From: an uncultured Thermodesulfobacteriota bacterium
GTDB lineage: Bacteria; Desulfobacterota; GWC2-55-46; JADFVP01
Direction: 5' to 3'
DNA length: 64,000 nucleotides
NCBI GenBank assembly: GCA_964472295.1
Contig: CAYYJQ010000002.1
Span: 32,074 to 96,073, forward strand
A model generated the notes under the pieces. The model was not told the DNA's origin and did no database searches. It worked only from the letters and a program-made list of their open reading frames with translations. Shown one piece after another: positions 3,116 to 63,342 of this stretch; within the stretch, counting starts at the first letter, position 1; each line of letters opens with the position of its first letter. The position numbers were made by a program, and so were the translations under genes.

Positions 3116-3180
3116 GATTAACCCCTGGCTTCAGATATGATAGACACGTTGAGAGCGCCCGGGTATTTCATAAGGGACCT

Positions 3181-3208
3181 CTCCTTAATTCAGGGACGAA
3201 TTAAGGAG
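3181..3208. repeat. hairpin CTCCTTAATTC-AGGGAC-GAATTAAGGAG, member of a motif family also at 59901..59930 and 60042..60069
   Basis: Perfect 11-bp stem. The loop is the reverse complement of the GTCCCG/GTCCCT loops of the copies near the porin gene. It lies about 90 nt 5' of the minus-strand start at 3115. Confidence 0.6.
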
Positions 3209-3294
3209 AAACCAACCTTTAGAGACAGCAAGAGGAGTATGCTTACGAATTAAAGAGTCCTCTATTCATAAAGCCGCCTCCATGCCTTGTTGAA

Positions 3295-8109: not shown

Positions 8110-8140
8110 AAATGCAAAAAAACCGCGTTTTTTTGCATTT
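8110..8140. repeat. 31-bp palindrome AAATGCAAAAAAA-CCGCG-TTTTTTTGCATTT
   Basis: Perfect 13-bp arms. A similar A-tract/CGCGG/T-tract palindrome GAAAAAGAAAAAA-CGCGG-TTTTTCTTTTTC lies at 60074..60105. It sits in the 400-bp spacer between the EPS locus and the secreted-enzyme operon. Confidence 0.6.
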
Positions 8141-8414
8141 CATCTCCCCTTATTTCAAGGACGAACTAAGAGGAGGTTCCCTATATTAAAAAAACAATGT
8201 AGCCATATGCTACGGCATTATACATAATTTCAAGATATTTTGCAAGCCGTTGCCCCATGGAGGGAAGGCATCATTAACCATATTTTACAGGCCCCTCCAG
8301 TAGCCCATGACCTGAACCTGGTTTACGCTACGATAGAACCCATGGCCAAACAGGGACCTTCAAAATGGAGAGTTTCCCATGATTTTCCTGAGTCGTACAA
8401 CATCTCCCTTCGTA

Positions 8415-18199: not shown

Positions 18200-19869
18200 A
18201 GGTAACCCAGGCCCTTAAGGCGCTTTGCAACCTCTTCCTCGTCCTCCTCGGAGAGGAAACTGTCAGCCCCGGAATCAATGACAACACCCTCGTCGTCACT
18301 GAAAGCCGCCTTGTGTGATCTCAGGAATCTGCCCTTGATAATGCCATCAAGGGCCTGACCATCCATTCCCCTTGGAACAGGAACTCCAAGAAGTCTTAGA
18401 ATCGTGGGGGCAATGTCCATTATGTGCGCGCCCTCTACAGCGCCCTTCTTTTTCAAGTCTTTTCCGTAGCCGAGCAGAATCCCCTCCATCCGGTGCGTCC
18501 CCCAGCCGCTCGCATAGCTTGCCTTCTCAAAGACATGTCCCTTTAACTGCACGTCCGCCAGATAGGCCCCTCCCTTCAAGAAGAAGATTATATCAGGCGC
18601 ATCGTCAAGGTAGGGGCCGCTGTAGAGTTCCTCCTTCTTGTAGGTATGTGTAACAACGGCCTCGCCCGTGGCGGGGTCCCGCATCTTTTTGAGAGCGGCG
18701 ATGAGGTCGTCCCTGAACTCCTCGTATTCCTGGCCAGGGCTTATCACGCCATCTGGCTCACGTCCCTTGAGGTTAACATAAAAGCCCTGTTCAGTATTGG
18801 AGGCGGAGTAGGCCTTTGTTTTCGACCAGTTAATAACCTGAAGAAAGTCATATGCGTGTATCCTGCCGCCCTTGCCCCTGCTCGGAAGGATTCGTTTGCG
18901 CAGATTATGTTTGTCTATCCTTCTTAAGTACCTCTTCACCTTGAGCACGCTCTGGCGGAAGGCCATATGAGAGAGTTGTTTGCTCTGATTGAGCTCCAGG
19001 TATCCTTGCTGGTGCAGCCACTGGTTGACGTATACCTTCTTTTCAAGAGGACCGAAGCCGTGGTCTGATACCATGAGGATATTGGCCACATCCCCGTACC
19101 TCTCCATGACCTTGCCCATGAATGCGTCGACCATCTGGTAGTACTCTTTTATCTTCTTAACAAAGCCCTTCTCGCGCGTGGTGAGCGAGTCCGGATCCAC
19201 GGGGTGGATGTACTTCCAGAGATAGTGCTGTATGCGGTCGGAACCGATAAATACCGAGATGAAAAGATCCCATTGCTTGTTTTCCATAAGGTACTCGAAG
19301 GCCCGGCATCTCTGCTCCGTGCACTCGATAATCTCATCGAGAAACTTCTCCACACCACGCTCGCCGTAGTACTGCCACCATACATCCATGGTGTATCCGC
19401 CGATCTTGTTCTTCACCTCCTCGAAGAGACCCTCGGGGTATGAGATGTTCGTGGCGTTCCCGGGCGTTAGAAGACCGGTAATTACGAAACCGTCAACCTC
19501 TGGCGGCGGGTACGTTAGCGGCATGTTGACCATGCCCACCTTCATCCCCGCGTCGTTTACGAGTTTCAGTATGGTAGCGCTCCTGATATGCTTGTAGTTG
19601 ACAGGGTGGCGGCCGACCTCGTTCTTGCCGGCCTTTACAAAGTCATAGATGCCGTGCTTTCCGGGGTTCTTCCCTGTCATGAAGGAGACCCACGACGGAC
19701 CGGTAACAGGGGGAATAGATGAACGGAGGTCGCCACGCACCCCTTCTGCGCACATCTTCTGAAGGTTGGGGAGCTCACCCCTCTTCATGTATGGGTCGAG
19801 GGCGTCGAAGGTGGCCCCATCGAGACCTATCACTATAACCTTTTCATTTATCTTCTTTTTCATTACCAA
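18196..19869 (-). CDS. alkaline-phosphatase-superfamily NPP-family protein (paralog 4)
   Basis: VIVIGLDGATFDALDPY...SIPPVTGPSWVSFMTGKNPGKHGIYDF. C-terminal tail KRLKGLGYL. Confidence 0.75.
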   Translation of the reverse strand: MVMKKKINEKVIVIGLDGATFDALDPYMKRGELPNLQKMCAEGVRGDLRSSIPPVTGPSWVSFMTGKNPGKHGIYDFVKAGKNEVGRHPVNYKHIRSATILKLVNDAGMKVGMVNMPLTYPPPEVDGFVITGLLTPGNATNISYPEGLFEEVKNKIGGYTMDVWWQYYGERGVEKFLDEIIECTEQRCRAFEYLMENKQWDLFISVFIGSDRIQHYLWKYIHPVDPDSLTTREKGFVKKIKEYYQMVDAFMGKVMERYGDVANILMVSDHGFGPLEKKVYVNQWLHQQGYLELNQSKQLSHMAFRQSVLKVKRYLRRIDKHNLRKRILPSRGKGGRIHAYDFLQVINWSKTKAYSASNTEQGFYVNLKGREPDGVISPGQEYEEFRDDLIAALKKMRDPATGEAVVTHTYKKEELYSGPYLDDAPDIIFFLKGGAYLADVQLKGHVFEKASYASGWGTHRMEGILLGYGKDLKKKGAVEGAHIMDIAPTILRLLGVPVPRGMDGQALDGIIKGRFLRSHKAAFSDDEGVVIDSGADSFLSEEDEEEVAKRLKGLGYL

Positions 19870-46117: not shown

Positions 46118-47214
46118 CCAGGACCCCCCCACTCGTTAGCATCATTATCATACACTATGGAGACGCGGGCGTGCTCGGCGAGTGCCTCGCCTCGCTAAGG
46201 TCCATAAAATACCCTGATGTAGAGTTCATCGTCCTCTCCAACTCCCCGCGAGACAGCCTCCTTGATGCCATAATCTCCGCTCACCCAGACAAAAAATTCA
46301 TCTTTACAGAGACCAACCTCGGTTATGCGGGAGGTTGCAACAGGGCCGTGGAGGCGGCCCGTGGAAAGTACGTCTTCATACTCAATAACGACGTAACCCT
46401 TGACTCCGACGCTGTTTCGCCCCTTCTGAAGGTATTGGAGGCAGACGGCAACATAGCCCTTGCCCAGCCAAAGATACTCTCCATGAGTGAGCCGGAGCGC
46501 TTTGAGTACTCCGGGGCCGCTGGAGGGCTCATGGACAGATACGGCTATCCCTTTGCCGCGGGAAGGATTTTCAATGATATAGAGCGTGACACCGGCCAGT
46601 ACGAAGAACCAAGAGAGATATTCTGGGCCTCAGGGGCCGCCCTCTTCGCAAGAAGAGACGTTATAACCAGGGCCGGCCTAATGGACGAGAGTTTCTTTGC
46701 CTACATGGAAGAAATCGACCTTGCCTGGCGCGTCCACCTAATGGGATACAAGGTCGTATACGTGCCAGGGGCGCGAATCTTTCACCTCGGGAGCCCCAAC
46801 CTGGACAGAAAAAGCGCCCGGCACCTCTACCTTAACCACAGGAACAACCTCGTCATGGTCCTCAAAAACTACTCACTTGCCTCGCTCCTTCGTACCCTCC
46901 CCCCAAGACTCGCACTCGAAGGCGCCACCATGCTATATGGCCTTGTACGCGAAAACCCCCTCAGGGCAAAGGCCATCATAAGGGCCATGCTGAACGTAAC
47001 TGGAAACATCCTAAGCATATTAAAGGAGAGAAAAAAGGCGCAGGCCATGAGGAAAGTCGGAGACGACGTAATACTCAAGAGGATGTATCACGGCTCCATA
47101 GCGGTCGAGTATTTCTTGAGAAAAAAAAGGACCATAAAAGAAATACCCGGTGCCGCGCCGCGGCCTTATGTGGATAGAAAAAACAAGAGAGGGAAAATAA
47201 AAGACAAAAGATAA
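46114..47214 (+). CDS. GT2-family glycosyltransferase (Glyco_tranf_2_3-like)
   Basis: VSIIIIHYGDAGVLGECLASL...NLGYAGGCNRA...ILNNDVTLD. The last 20 codons are Lys-rich and are encoded by a purine-rich stretch that merges into repeat element A, so the true stop may be uncertain. Confidence 0.75.
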   Translation: MTRTPPLVSIIIIHYGDAGVLGECLASLRSIKYPDVEFIVLSNSPRDSLLDAIISAHPDKKFIFTETNLGYAGGCNRAVEAARGKYVFILNNDVTLDSDAVSPLLKVLEADGNIALAQPKILSMSEPERFEYSGAAGGLMDRYGYPFAAGRIFNDIERDTGQYEEPREIFWASGAALFARRDVITRAGLMDESFFAYMEEIDLAWRVHLMGYKVVYVPGARIFHLGSPNLDRKSARHLYLNHRNNLVMVLKNYSLASLLRTLPPRLALEGATMLYGLVRENPLRAKAIIRAMLNVTGNILSILKERKKAQAMRKVGDDVILKRMYHGSIAVEYFLRKKRTIKEIPGAAPRPYVDRKNKRGKIKDKR

Positions 47215-47221
47215 AAAAACC

Positions 47222-47380
47222 TCCCAATTTCTTTTAGAAAAAAGAAAGTCTTTTGATTGGGCGGCGAAGCCCATCTCAATTATTTGGTCAATACGCATGA
47301 CAGGCAAATTTTGCCAGAAAGAAAGCGCGTCAAAGAAAACCAATAGTGGAGTGGGCACTGCCCACCAAAAAAAAGAAGAA
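47222..47380. repeat. intergenic repeat element, copy A (truncated; ncRNA / MITE-like candidate)
   Basis: T-tract/A-tract palindrome TTTCTTTTAGAAAAAAGAAAG (47227..47250). Core GTCAAAGAAAACCA (47329..47342). Hairpin GTGGGCACTGCCCAC, then an A-rich tail. Confidence 0.7.
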
Positions 47381-47419
47381 AAAAAGGAGAGGCCCGCGCC
47401 CCCAAAGGGGACGCGGGCC
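47366..47419 (-). terminator. rho-independent terminator after the DUF2249-hemerythrin gene, embedded in repeat element A
   Basis: Stem GGCCCGCG/CGCGGGCC enclosing CCCC-AAA-GGGG, followed on the minus strand by CTCTCCTTTTTTTCTTCTTTTTTTT. Confidence 0.6.
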
Positions 47420-49659: not shown

Positions 49660-49885
49660 ATATTTCCCCTTTCTTTTTGGAAAAAGAAAGTTTTTTATTC
49701 AGGCGGCCATCTCCCTCAGGATTTCTTGGACACACCGTATGATATGCACGCTTTATCAGGAAGAAACCGCGTCAAAGAAAACCAAAAAATTTGTAGTAGT
49801 GGGGTGTGCCCCCAAAAGAAAAAAGTTCTCGTAGGATGGGTGGAGCGTGTGCGAAACCCAACAACTCAAAAGATAAAAAGACAGT
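49660..49885. repeat. intergenic repeat element, copy B (full length)
   Basis: Palindrome CTTTCTTTTTGGAAAAAGAAAG (49668..49692). Core GTCAAAGAAAACCA (49771..49784). Hairpin GGGGTGTGCCCC. Second core AGGATGGG...GCGAAACCCAACAA (49831..49865). Confidence 0.7.
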
Positions 49886-53264: not shown

Positions 53265-53387
53265 GGTAATGAAAAGTGAAACGCCTACAGCCGGACCTGC
53301 GCGGCCACGGCACCCGGCGCGGCAAAAGGGGAGTGAAAGTCCCTGGTCCTCGGCATAAAGGGAGCGCCCAATACCGGTTTTCTTTGT

Positions 53388-53417
53388 CTTACTTTCTTTT
53401 TTCAAAAAGAAAGTAAG
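53388..53417. repeat. 30-bp perfect palindrome CTTACTTTCTTTTT-TC-AAAAAGAAAGTAAG (partial relative of elements A-C)
   Basis: Same arm sequence (CTTTCTTTT / AAAAGAAAG) as the palindromes opening elements A, B and C. It is followed by GGAAAACCAAGG and the nirB terminator hairpin. Confidence 0.6.
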
Positions 53418-53459
53418 GAAAACCAAGGGGGGCGAGGGGGCTCAAGGCCCCTCGCCCCC
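53395..53459 (-). terminator. rho-independent terminator after nirB
   Basis: 12-bp GC stem GGGGGCGAGGGG/CCCCTCGCCCCC with an 8-nt loop, followed on the minus strand by CTTGGTTTTCCTTACTTTCTTTTT. Confidence 0.6.
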
Positions 53460-59857: not shown

Positions 59858-59897
59858 CTTGTCTCCTCTTCTTGCCCCGGTTTTTTATCTTGAGGAA

Positions 59898-60212
59898 CCT
59901 CTCTTTAATCCGTCCCGGAATTAAGGAGAGACGGGAAAGAAAAAAACGCTGTTTTTCTTTCCCTCACATTTTCAAGAACTTACAGTTATAGAAAATCTCA
60001 ACACGTCCCGGCGTTGCTGGAACATCTGAATTAAGGAAGCTCTGAATAATTCGTCCCTGAATTATTCAGAGACGAAAAAGAAAAAACGCGGTTTTTCTTT
60101 TTCTCACATTTTCAATAACTTACAGTTATCGAAAATGGCAACACGTCCATGTGTTGCTGGAAAGTCTGAATTAATCAGACTTTCCTTAATCAGACTTTCC
60201 TTTCTTATCCCG
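59898..60212. repeat. tandem 139-bp direct repeat (2 body copies, 3 hairpin modules) in the leader of the porin-glnK-amt operon
   Basis: Unit 1 starts at 59935 (GAAAGAAAAAAACGCTGTTTTTCTTTCC...) and unit 2 at 60074 (GAAAAAGAAAAAACGCGGTTTTTCTTTTTC...). The units contain ACTTACAGTTAT(A/C)GAAAAT and GCAACAC-N6-GTGTTGC. The hairpin modules lie at 59901..59930, 60042..60069 and 60164..60200. Confidence 0.7.
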
Positions 60213-60339: not shown

Positions 60340-60355
60340 GCAACTTTGGTGCCAC
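60340..60355 (-). promoter_or_regulatory. sigma-54 (-24/-12) promoter for the porin-glnK-amt-amt operon
   Basis: The minus strand reads TGGCAC-CAAAG-TTGC, a perfect match to TGGCAC-N5-TTGC, about 480 nt 5' of the porin start. An NtrC-family activator gene is present in the window. Confidence 0.55.
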
Positions 60356-62829: not shown

Positions 62830-62925
62830 GACGAAAACTTAACAAAAAAAAACCATGAGGGCAAGACATATGAGGAGAGGAGAAAAGGGATAAAATAAAA
62901 AAAGGGGAAGAAACAAAGGGGGAAT

Positions 62926-63044
62926 GGGCGGGCTTCGCCCGCAAAGAGATAGAATAGGAAAGAAGGGGTGAAGCGGGCGGGCTTCGCCCAAAGAGGCCAA
63001 AGAGAGACAAAAAGAGGATAATGGGTGGGCGGGCTTCGCCCGCA
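62926..63044. repeat. three regularly spaced GCGGGC-TTCG-GCCCGC hairpins/inverted repeats inside a roughly 220-nt polypurine tract
   Basis: GGGCGGGCTTCGCCCGC at 62926..62942, 62973..62989 (variant) and 63028..63044, with about 50-nt spacing. The plus strand at 62840..63056 is almost devoid of C and T outside the hairpins. Confidence 0.65.
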
Positions 63045-63057
63045 AAGAAAAAGACTT

Positions 63058-63260
63058 CAAACTTTCTTTTAGAAAAAGGAAAGTTTTTTGGCTGGGTTGC
63101 TCTCTACCTCTGGCTTTTTGGAAGTTAAATCAAGAAAGGTTAGTCTGCCACAAAAAGAAATTGTCAAAGAAAACCAATACCAATGGCCTTCGGCCATTGG
63201 AAATAACTTGCAGGATGGGCGAAGCACAGCGAAACCCAACAAGAAGCACAGAAGAGAAAG
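63058..63260. repeat. intergenic repeat element, copy C (full length)
   Basis: Palindrome CTTTCTTTTAGAAAAAGGAAAG (63062..63085). Core GTCAAAGAAAACCA (63163..63176). Hairpin CCAATGGCC-TTCG-GGCCATTGG. Second core AGGATGGG...GCGAAACCCAACAA (63211..63243). Confidence 0.7.
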
Positions 63261-63264
63261 AAGC

Positions 63265-63303
63265 GGCAAGACCCTGTCTTTGCCTTCCCCTCCTTTTTGT
63301 GTT
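63265..63303 (+). terminator. plus-strand rho-independent terminator at the 3' end of repeat element C
   Basis: GGCAAGAC-CCT-GTCTTTGCC followed by TTCCCCTCCTTTTTGTGTT. No plus-strand CDS lies upstream, since glgA is on the minus strand. Confidence 0.45.
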
Positions 63304-63342
63304 AAAAAAAGGTAAGGGAAAAAAACAGGAAATGGATAAAAG

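Follow-up and report, generated by a model that had tools for sequence, protein, structure and literature searches.

Tagged repetitive extragenic palindromic (REP) sequences consist of a palindrome of 20–40 bp with an unpaired conserved tag at one end (PMC3733652). Their units occur close by in opposite orientation, between unidirectional or convergent open reading frames (ORFs), and are probably transcribed and function as RNA hairpins (PMC3733652). A related concept is that of the REPIN, the inverted REP doublet (PMC3116915). Here, we compare these systems with an intergenic element that is present in four copies, A to D, in a 64-kb stretch of DNA from an uncultured Thermodesulfobacteriota bacterium (contig CAYYJQ010000002.1), called the window below. 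The constant module of this element is an A/T-rich hairpin, P, and a directly following unpaired polypurine tag, K (CAAAGAAAACC). The complement of K is written K', and L-numbers refer to the compared loci. On balance, we favour the view that copies A to D represent a new intergenic repeat family of "tagged palindromes", similar to REPs and to bacterial interspersed mosaic elements (BIMEs), which would be co-transcribed with the genes at whose boundaries they lie.

The likeness to REPs, REPINs and BIMEs extends over several traits. The element is a short extragenic hairpin palindrome with a conserved unpaired tag at one end. It occurs as singlets and as head-to-head doublets, and forms hairpin mosaics with conserved linkers. 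Furthermore, it lies between convergent or co-directional genes, downstream of coding regions, and is present in some relatives while absent from others. In contrast to REPs, however, it also forms tandem arrays of 83–90-nt units, and its modules are near-identical in three phyla. We regard the element as a new variant of the REP/BIME kind outside the known GTAG and CGTC superfamilies, because its tag is a polypurine 11-mer, its stem is A/T-rich and no gene for a REP-associated tyrosine transposase (RAYT) was found among the genes next to the copies. A literature search by sequence words returned primers and unrelated matches only. In the repeat literature for these phyla, the accessible part of a general REP survey contains no comparable element.

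The tagged hairpin and its copies in the window

The hairpin P has an invariant inner stem (CUUUCUUUU/AAAAGAAAG), which spans 22 nt together with the loop, and a variable outer stem of 3–5 bp in which A-T, G-C, C-G and T-A pairs are all seen and compensate for one another. At each of four outer-stem positions, Watson-Crick pairs are formed in 16–20 of the 29 distinct modules, where 8–11 would be expected. No more than 5 of 2000 shuffles match or exceed this pairing, and each position shows at least three pair types. Because the outer stem covaries, P is a true, selected hairpin. Single-sequence folding returned it as a hairpin in every copy. The length of the loop varies from 2 to 8 nt across modules, which argues against a rigid double-stranded binding site for a dimer. 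Mismatches in the stem are balanced between the G-U type (8) and the A-C type (9), and hence favour neither strand. The tag K is the mirror image of the purine arm of P, and variant families alter arm and tag jointly. The evidence for this mirror relation is thin, as AAAGAAA, the shared core, has mirror symmetry of its own.

A pattern scan of the window found the palindrome CTTTCTTTT-N3-AAAAAGAAAG at four sites (Table 1). When up to 3 mismatches were allowed there were 8 strand-matches, where 0.04 would be expected. Likewise, the 14-mer GTCAAAGAAAACCA occurs exactly in copies A, B and C, against an expectation of 0.41 at up to 2 mismatches. A first-pass annotation of this stretch had reported these three copies with their palindrome and identical 14-mer; they are present at the sites it gave, at counts far above chance. 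P and the 14-mer core are 80 nt apart in both A and B, compared to 79 nt in C. The second core that had been described for B and C was also recovered (GCGAAACCCAACAA at 49851 and 63229), at a distance of 80 nt from the first core in B and 66 nt in C. In a repeat-finder alignment, A and B are 73% identical over 116 nt. A, B and C all align in the blocks of the palindrome and the core, and the mean column identity in a MAFFT alignment of the copies is 69%.

Copies A, B and C are long forms, composed of P, one unit of about 80 nt, K and a hairpin, and copy D is a compact form. Upstream of the core, the three long copies carry a degenerate half-palindrome (AGAAAGAAAGCGCG-TCAAAG...), to which a covariance model of P and K assigns 18–22 bits. 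A K-like box is often also found 5' of P. In copy A, this box overlaps the C-terminus and the stop codon of the GT2 gene (GACAAAAGATAAAAAAACC). The general layout is that of a hairpin mosaic, in which A-rich K linkers stand between hairpins. Similarly, each of the GC hairpins upstream of C is followed by an A-rich K-like box (AAAGAAAAAGAC at 63044–63055). A hairpin of the type GCGGGC-TTCG-GCCCGC occurs three times upstream of C, and the third, nearer to glgA, lies in a 77-nt indel stretch that is absent from L020.

Copy D had been described as a relative consisting of the palindrome only. Our results show instead that it carries K next to P: read on the minus strand, ACAAAGAAAACC stands 4 nt from P, and the plus strand has GGAAAACCAAGG. 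The P-K covariance model, whose training alignment included D, scores it at 71 bits (minus strand) and 40 bits (plus strand). Within the window, the symmetric arrangement is found at D alone. This copy is located between the terminator of a nirB-like gene and an operon encoding a PAS histidine kinase and a sigma-54 activator.

The element is extragenic and is mostly found between genes that are convergent or co-directional. It occurs in either orientation, tight against the ends of coding sequences. In the window, 4 of the 14 intergenic regions of at least 60 nt hold a copy. The flanking genes of A, B and C are GT2, DUF2249-hemerythrin, thiE, and UvrD with GlgA, in agreement with the first-pass annotation. 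Neighbouring genes are convergent around A and B, co-directional around D and divergent around C. The gene-proximal end of the element is formed by P, which is found 0–13 nt past stop codons (copy A of the window, L025:12269, L141 and L062) or 17–46 nt before start codons (L122, L062, L114, L071, L057 and L119). The three sites in L025 lie between co-directional genes. In L122, the whole 85-nt spacer between two co-directional genes consists of a hairpin, K', P and a ribosome-binding site. Efficient termination in this fully occupied operon spacer is therefore unlikely. A conserved small ORF, which had already been judged improbable, was rejected, since six-frame translation gives no ORF common to the copies and indels of 76, 77, 85, 87 and 88 nt exclude one.

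Variation among relatives and occurrence in other phyla

Syntenic contigs from three related species were retrieved by protein look-ups; the identity of their GlgA to that of the window is 81%, 71% and 68%. The usual form of the element in relatives is compact, with P, a gap of 4–5 nt and then A or G followed by CAAAGAAAACC (five sites). Tandem extension can add one to four units of 83–90 nt, each of which opens with half of P and K. For instance, L025 has three tandem units of 87–88 nt, each starting with GCAAAGAAAACCAATAGGGGG, and L149 has 3.8 units of 90 nt with 94% identity, each starting with the half-palindrome and K. Modules are also paired head to head around a short, often GC-rich hairpin X. 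Such symmetric doublets (P-K-X-K'-P) are found in L002 (30–165), L028, L040, L062 and L114.

The element is modular and dynamic, and close relatives differ from one another by its gain, its loss and changes in its size. In L147, L149 and L151, site B is empty and the spacers measure 48–119 nt, compared to 335 nt in the window. At site A, the window, L147 and L149 all have P 13 nt past the stop codon of the same GT2 gene, and differ in the array behind it; L151 has none. In L020, site C is shorter by exactly the 76 nt that separate K from P, and by the 77-nt unit with the GC hairpin. The whole C composite is absent from L023 and L025. Site D is common to the window and L020, and is found in L025 in opposite orientation with two units. 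Overall, there are four copies in the 64-kb window, three in 21.5 kb of L025 and four in 8 kb of L002. The earlier suggestion of a miniature mobile or repeat element hence stands with respect to the repeat, as evidenced by gain and loss, unit indels and occurrence in other phyla. [quoted passage not shown] The outermost bases are those of the variable outer stem of P, and the flanks are without duplication, with an occasional K-like AAAACC box 5' of P. As a separate observation, L025 carries at 19655–19715 a perfect 17-bp hairpin (CCCCCATGCTACAATGCC...GGCATTGTAGCATGGGGG) followed by TTTTTT directly before the start codon of the histidine kinase, which is a terminator-like arrangement.

The uvrD-glgA spacer that contains copy C (window 62830–63342, L020 9638–10000) is 95% identical over 360 aligned nt. 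For comparison, the glgA, uvrD, GATase, histidine-kinase and nirB-like genes of the window and L020 are 77–85% identical (79–84% for the genes flanking C), two ordinary spacers are about 70% identical, and the D spacer reaches 88.6%. The identity falls abruptly where glgA starts, at its start codon. Such a pattern points either to the whole mosaic being strongly constrained or to a recent exchange that was limited to the spacer. A conserved TTTTTTGTTAA(G/A)TT motif ends about 8 nt before the ATG of glgA in four relatives (window ~62830–62870, minus strand; upstream of 10001 in L020, L023 and L025). From its sequence, this motif resembles an extended -10 box, placed as for a glgA mRNA with no leader or almost none.

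Initial scans with long-form patterns gave two true homologs among 17 genome matches; contigs of metagenomes and viruses yielded nothing. When metagenomes were scanned for the right arm and K (AAAAAGAAAG-N4-5-CAAAGAAAACC), at least 120 loci matched. In nearly all non-coding matches listed the left arm is present as well, even though it was outside the scan pattern. Among the matches listed, about three quarters belong to one family in human-gut contigs of ~60% GC, in which the module is embedded in long GC-hairpin mosaics. A protein encoded next to it clusters with a metagenome-assembled genome (MAG) designated 'Bacillota bacterium'. Two further loci were found in Nitrospirota MAGs. Hence, P-K is present in three phyla: the Thermodesulfobacteriota, the Nitrospirota and the Bacillota (gut MAG). 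The module is common to several phyla, a wider scope than the first-pass annotation could see. Plasmids and phages gave no BLAST match, and a scan of viral contigs gave stray matches only.

The gut Bacillota MAG, which is abundant and has ~60% GC, contains kilobase-long non-coding mosaics (L086 4640–7230; L056 4480–5400; L088 1640–2180) of short GC hairpins interleaved with P-K modules and their variants. Another contig of 39% GC, which may be archaeal, has P-K-like sequence and extra K boxes between tRNA-like genes (L145 1100–1300). This could be a chance low-complexity match, or it could represent a further host domain.

Explanations weighed against each other

According to the first-pass annotation, the element could be a structured non-coding RNA, because the hairpins behind the core seemed to preserve one shape with changed sequence. 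All three hairpins exist. Yet, they start 8 (A), 16 (B) and 3 nt (C) past the core and have different stems; they are not homologous and are unalignable, and the claim of a common, compensated shape is not supported. The proposed RNAalifold check was run on both strands of five full-length copies (A, B, C and the homologs L002 and L015 from Thermodesulfobacteriota MAGs). It predicted only the palindrome hairpin and a weak post-core stem, with a positive, i.e., unfavourable, covariation term. Single-sequence fold z-scores range from -2.5 to +0.6, and the ~80-nt interiors fold differently in each copy. A long-range stem (GUUUUUUGAY/GUCAAAGAAAAC) was not recovered by RNAalifold and is absent from the compact forms. 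No known RNA family was matched: neither the window nor 20 related loci gave an Rfam match at the gathering threshold, and the copies gave only noise at E ≤ 10. A tRNA search of the window found none. With no shared interior fold, no Rfam match and an unfavourable covariation term, we find no support for a structured RNA with compensatory hairpins.

On the minus strand, each post-core hairpin is followed by the U-rich complement of the core, UGGUUUUCUUUG. A terminator scan lists the hairpins of C and D as terminator-like on this strand. The hairpin of D lies directly 3' of the stop codon of the nirB-like gene. In A and B, the hairpin stands 8–16 nt from the U-rich box, after another, stronger terminator. 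In relatives, P is without a U-tract of its own. When promoters built from K or P were sought by eye on both strands, -10 positions were not conserved, and the GG..GC spacing was 1–2 nt off the sigma-54 rule. A promoter consensus scan gave one weak -35/-10 match (9/12) in A (47307–47279, minus strand) and none in B and C.

A small RNA gene or a cis-regulatory RNA with conserved single-stranded seeds at each copy seems unlikely to us, although it is the rival to which we give most weight. The RNA would be read either from the minus strand, as block 2 (the conserved block around the second core), hairpin and UGGUUUUCUUUG terminator, or from the plus strand, as P, K and hairpin. Conserved blocks (P, K and block 2) with variable sequence between them are as in paralogous small RNAs. 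Moreover, P is a selected hairpin, minus-strand hairpins with a U-tract form the ends at C and D and weaker ones at A and B, and the convergent genes around A and B would not otherwise need a promoter there. The C region also is far better conserved than its flanking genes, and together with block 2 this conservation keeps an RNA or regulatory function alive as a rival. However, the copies have no fold in common beyond P, no promoter conserved by eye on either strand and no Rfam match. They have both orientations with respect to neighbouring genes, are also found in operon spacers too short for a promoter, and vary from 0 to 4 units at orthologous sites, while the balanced mismatches in P (8 vs 9) give no strand signature. 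The least probable explanation is that there is no separate element at all, but only terminator context (A-tract, hairpin and U-tract) and low-complexity A-rich spacers. The first-pass annotation had cautioned that part of the element might be such context, and this was partly right. Hairpin and UGGUUUUCUUUG are terminator-like on the minus strand, where K supplies the U-rich tail, the tail of D follows the hairpin at the nirB-like stop codon, and intergenic DNA is generally purine-rich here. As in an intrinsic bidirectional terminator, GGUUUUCUUUG comes after a hairpin on one strand, with its A-rich complement in front of the hairpin on the other; at D, this arrangement directly follows the stop codon of a real gene. 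In contrast to such terminators, the U-tract of the element shows base-level conservation across loci and phyla, and never occurs without a second hairpin, which is A/T-only and lacks a U-tract of its own. It also occurs in tight operon spacers (L122), where efficient termination would silence the downstream gene. Terminator context also leaves unexplained why exact 14-mers stand 79–80 nt from a 22-nt palindrome three times, while other strong terminators of the window have unrelated tails, why no U-tract follows P in relatives, and why C has divergent genes on its two sides, where one would not expect a terminator. The repeat statistics and the recurrence of the 45-nt module in the genomes of other phyla largely refute this explanation.

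Somewhat less probable than an RNA is an element that acts at the level of DNA, where P-K would mark gene boundaries by binding a protein or forming a structure in the duplex. Candidates are a cruciform, a mirror repeat that forms H-DNA, a recombination site, or a nucleoid or topology site. H-DNA classically requires a homopurine mirror repeat, and K mirrors the purine arm of P in a relation that is kept in three variant families. Copies in either orientation without strand asymmetry, a 45-nt A/T island at the ends of coding sequences in a 54% GC genome, and the four-fold symmetric AAAGAAA array of D would fit as well. Yet, variation in loop length and covariation of the outer stem favour a folded single strand over recognition of duplex half-sites. 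Since AAAGAAA is mirror-symmetric by itself, the mirror evidence comes down to the flanking positions, with about 2–3 independent changes. Furthermore, arms of 8–9 nt are short for H-DNA, and, with the outer stem paired, hardly any linker remains for a third strand to fold back. We are more doubtful again about P-K as an ancient or widely transferred nucleic-acid device, either an RNA triple helix or H-DNA at gene boundaries, or a boxA-like landing pad for Nus factors formed by K'. In the triplex version, K' (UUUUCUUU) would run parallel to the AAAAGAAA arm as a third strand of U.A-U and C+.G-C triplets. Either version would explain the base-level conservation across three phyla and the joint changes of arm and K. 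The Bacillus-type rrn boxA is UGUUCUUUGAAAA, flanked by a boxB hairpin. K' contains UUCUUUG, as does this boxA, and hairpins flank both. The element differs from a boxA or nut site in being multi-copy, with half of the copies facing the wrong way with respect to transcription, and the variable outer stem of P takes the place of the 3' part of boxA.

Other repeats with a comparable layout are known. The BOX elements of Streptococcus pneumoniae and the mycobacterial interspersed repetitive units (MIRUs) and variable-number tandem repeats (VNTRs) of mycobacteria also combine a constant end module with variable tandem units, lie in operon spacers against stop and start codons, and differ in copy number by strain. 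Neither BOX nor MIRU/VNTR has sequence similarity to our element. BOX has distinct A and C end modules, whereas our element has a single palindromic end module. Compared to MIRU, the unit lengths are mostly not multiples of three, so that coupled small ORFs are inapplicable. The P-K-X-K'-P doublets resemble MITEs of the Correia or NEMIS type, which are 100–200-bp elements with inverted ends of ~45 bp, are co-transcribed with neighbouring genes and can fold as a long hairpin. In contrast, the outermost bases of our element are not conserved, no target-site duplication was seen, and the two K boxes of the Nitrospirota doublets are not mutually complementary. Several further candidates were rejected. 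Operators of the IHF, LexA, CodY and NikR types did not fit when compared by eye with consensus sequences; no consistent toxin gene lies downstream, unlike in a type III toxin-antitoxin repeat array; no R'/R'' cores of an integron attC site were seen by eye; and the 'spacers' inside one array are identical to each other, unlike those of CRISPR.

For the favoured reading, a REP/BIME-like family of tagged palindromes, we infer co-transcription, a copying mechanism and terminator-like or mRNA-end roles. The copies would ride on the mRNAs of flanking genes, because P lies so close to stop and start codons. On the strand where K is read as GGUUUUCUUUG, the preceding hairpin and K' might form a terminator-like or 3'-end-stabilising structure, with P as the end hairpin. 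New sites might arise through copying, possibly by a hairpin-recognising single-strand DNA transposase, by analogy with REP and RAYT, and arrays might be resized by slippage or unequal exchange.

Several points weigh against this reading. Classical REPs are GC-rich, whereas P has an A/T-rich stem, the inner part of which is invariant and polypyrimidine/polypurine. As tag, P has a polypurine of 11 nt, and neither GTAG nor CGTC is found at either end of the palindrome. REPs are normally lineage-specific, whereas near-identical 45-nt modules are found in organisms of 43% and 54% GC. A Pfam scan, limited to the genes adjoining the copies, found no transposase, and the copy count covers only the 64 kb of the window and pieces of about 20 kb from relatives. 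In addition, a selfish repeat alone would be insufficient to account for the identity of the C spacer. Block 2 is conserved only between B and C (including C of L020), and is not part of the general family.

If confirmed genome-wide, the family would stand as a third kind of tagged palindrome beside the GTAG and CGTC superfamilies of REPs. It would be A/T-stemmed, polypurine-tagged and array-forming, and common to distant anaerobic and gut lineages. It could then offer a strain-typing marker for uncultured Thermodesulfobacteriota and Nitrospirota, a source of terminator-like and mRNA-end hairpins that alter operon expression, and a search handle for the enzyme that copies the element. Two concrete, testable oddities are how unusually well the uvrD-glgA spacer is conserved and how K mirrors the hairpin arm.

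Feature coordinates and neighbouring elements

The features of the four copies and of the terminators next to them are listed in Table 1.

Table 1. Parts of copies A to D and adjoining terminators, in window coordinates; H, hairpin behind the core; bits and E-values refer to the P-K covariance model.
Feature	Position	Strand	Remarks
Copy A, P (ATTTCTTTT-AGA-AAAAAGAAAG)	47227..47248	+	13 nt past GT2 stop codon (47212-47214)
Copy A, variable spacer, first part of ~85-nt unit	47249..47309	+	nothing in common with fold or sequence of B and C except G..GC
Copy A, degenerate half-palindrome and K	47310..47344	+	exact 14-mer GTCAAAGAAAACCA at 47329-47342; 18.5 bits, E=0.013
Copy A, H (GTGGGC-ACT-GCCCAC)	47351..47365	strand-neutral	on minus strand, 8 nt (UCCACUAU) between H and UGGUUUUCUUUGAC
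Intrinsic terminator of DUF2249-hemerythrin gene	47391..47419	-	13-bp stem, 12 GC pairs, T-rich tail; context, outside the repeat
Copy B, P, perfect palindrome CTTTCTTTTTGGAAAAAGAAAG	49669..49690	+	27 bits; 71 nt past stop codon of second GT2 gene
Copy B, half-palindrome and K	49745..49786	+	14-mer at 49771-49784; 22.5 bits, E=0.0013
Copy B, weak hairpin GGGG-TGTG-CCCC	49801..49812	strand-neutral	16 nt past K
Copy B, block 2 (AGGATGGG...GCGAAACCCAACAA)	49833..49864	+	otherwise only in C and the ortholog of C
Copy D, compact symmetric form: GGTTTTCC-TTA-(P, 53392-53413)-TAAG-ACAAAGAAAACC	53373..53427	-	orthologous in L020
Terminator hairpin of nirB-like gene	53428..53459	-	T-rich tail CTTGGTTTTCC forms the K'-like arm of copy D
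Copy C, upstream mosaic: GC hairpins GGGCG..CGCCC (62975-62989) and GCGGGCTTCGCCCGC (63029-63043)	62975..63055	+	
Copy C, P (CTTTCTTTTAGAAAAAGGAAAG)	63062..63083	+	26.8 bits
Copy C, ~76-nt unit	63084..63162	+	gap in L020 ortholog (alignment columns 202-277), where K abuts P
Copy C, K, exact 14-mer	63163..63176	+	half-palindrome and K model match at 63149-63178
Copy C, H (CCAATGGCC-GAA-GGCCATTGG)	63180..63200	-	9-bp stem, then UAUUGGUUUU; terminator-like
Copy C, block 2 (AGGATGGGCGAAGCACAGCGAAACCCAACAA)	63212..63242	+	matches block 2 of B and L020
Terminator-like hairpin GGCAAGACCCTGTCTTTGCC and T-rich tail	63265..63301	+	directly upstream of uvrD; in conserved C composite

Other repeats are found elsewhere in the window. 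At 59936–60174 (and 60340–60355 on the minus strand), two 99-nt repeats with 86% identity lie 140 nt apart, each opening with a GAAAGAAAAA...TTTTTCTTTC palindrome. They are situated between a textbook sigma-54 promoter (GTGGCACCAAAGTTGCG, minus strand) and an operon of a 246-aa protein gene, glnB and amt. Judged from their sequence and position, they could be a repeated 5'-leader element of this nitrogen-regulated operon. A sub-threshold Rfam match to the gyrA RNA (RF01740; 29.5 bits compared to a gathering threshold of 45, E=1.6e-4) at 59880–59969 on the minus strand overlaps the hairpin CTCTCTTTAATCC...GGAATTAAGGAGAG. Finally, a second intergenic hairpin family (CTCTCCTTAATTC...GAATTAAGGAGAG) occurs at 3168–3212, 8133–8177, 59888–59932 and 60029–60073, with copies 60–73% identical to the reference copy. 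This genome therefore holds several unrelated spacer repeats.

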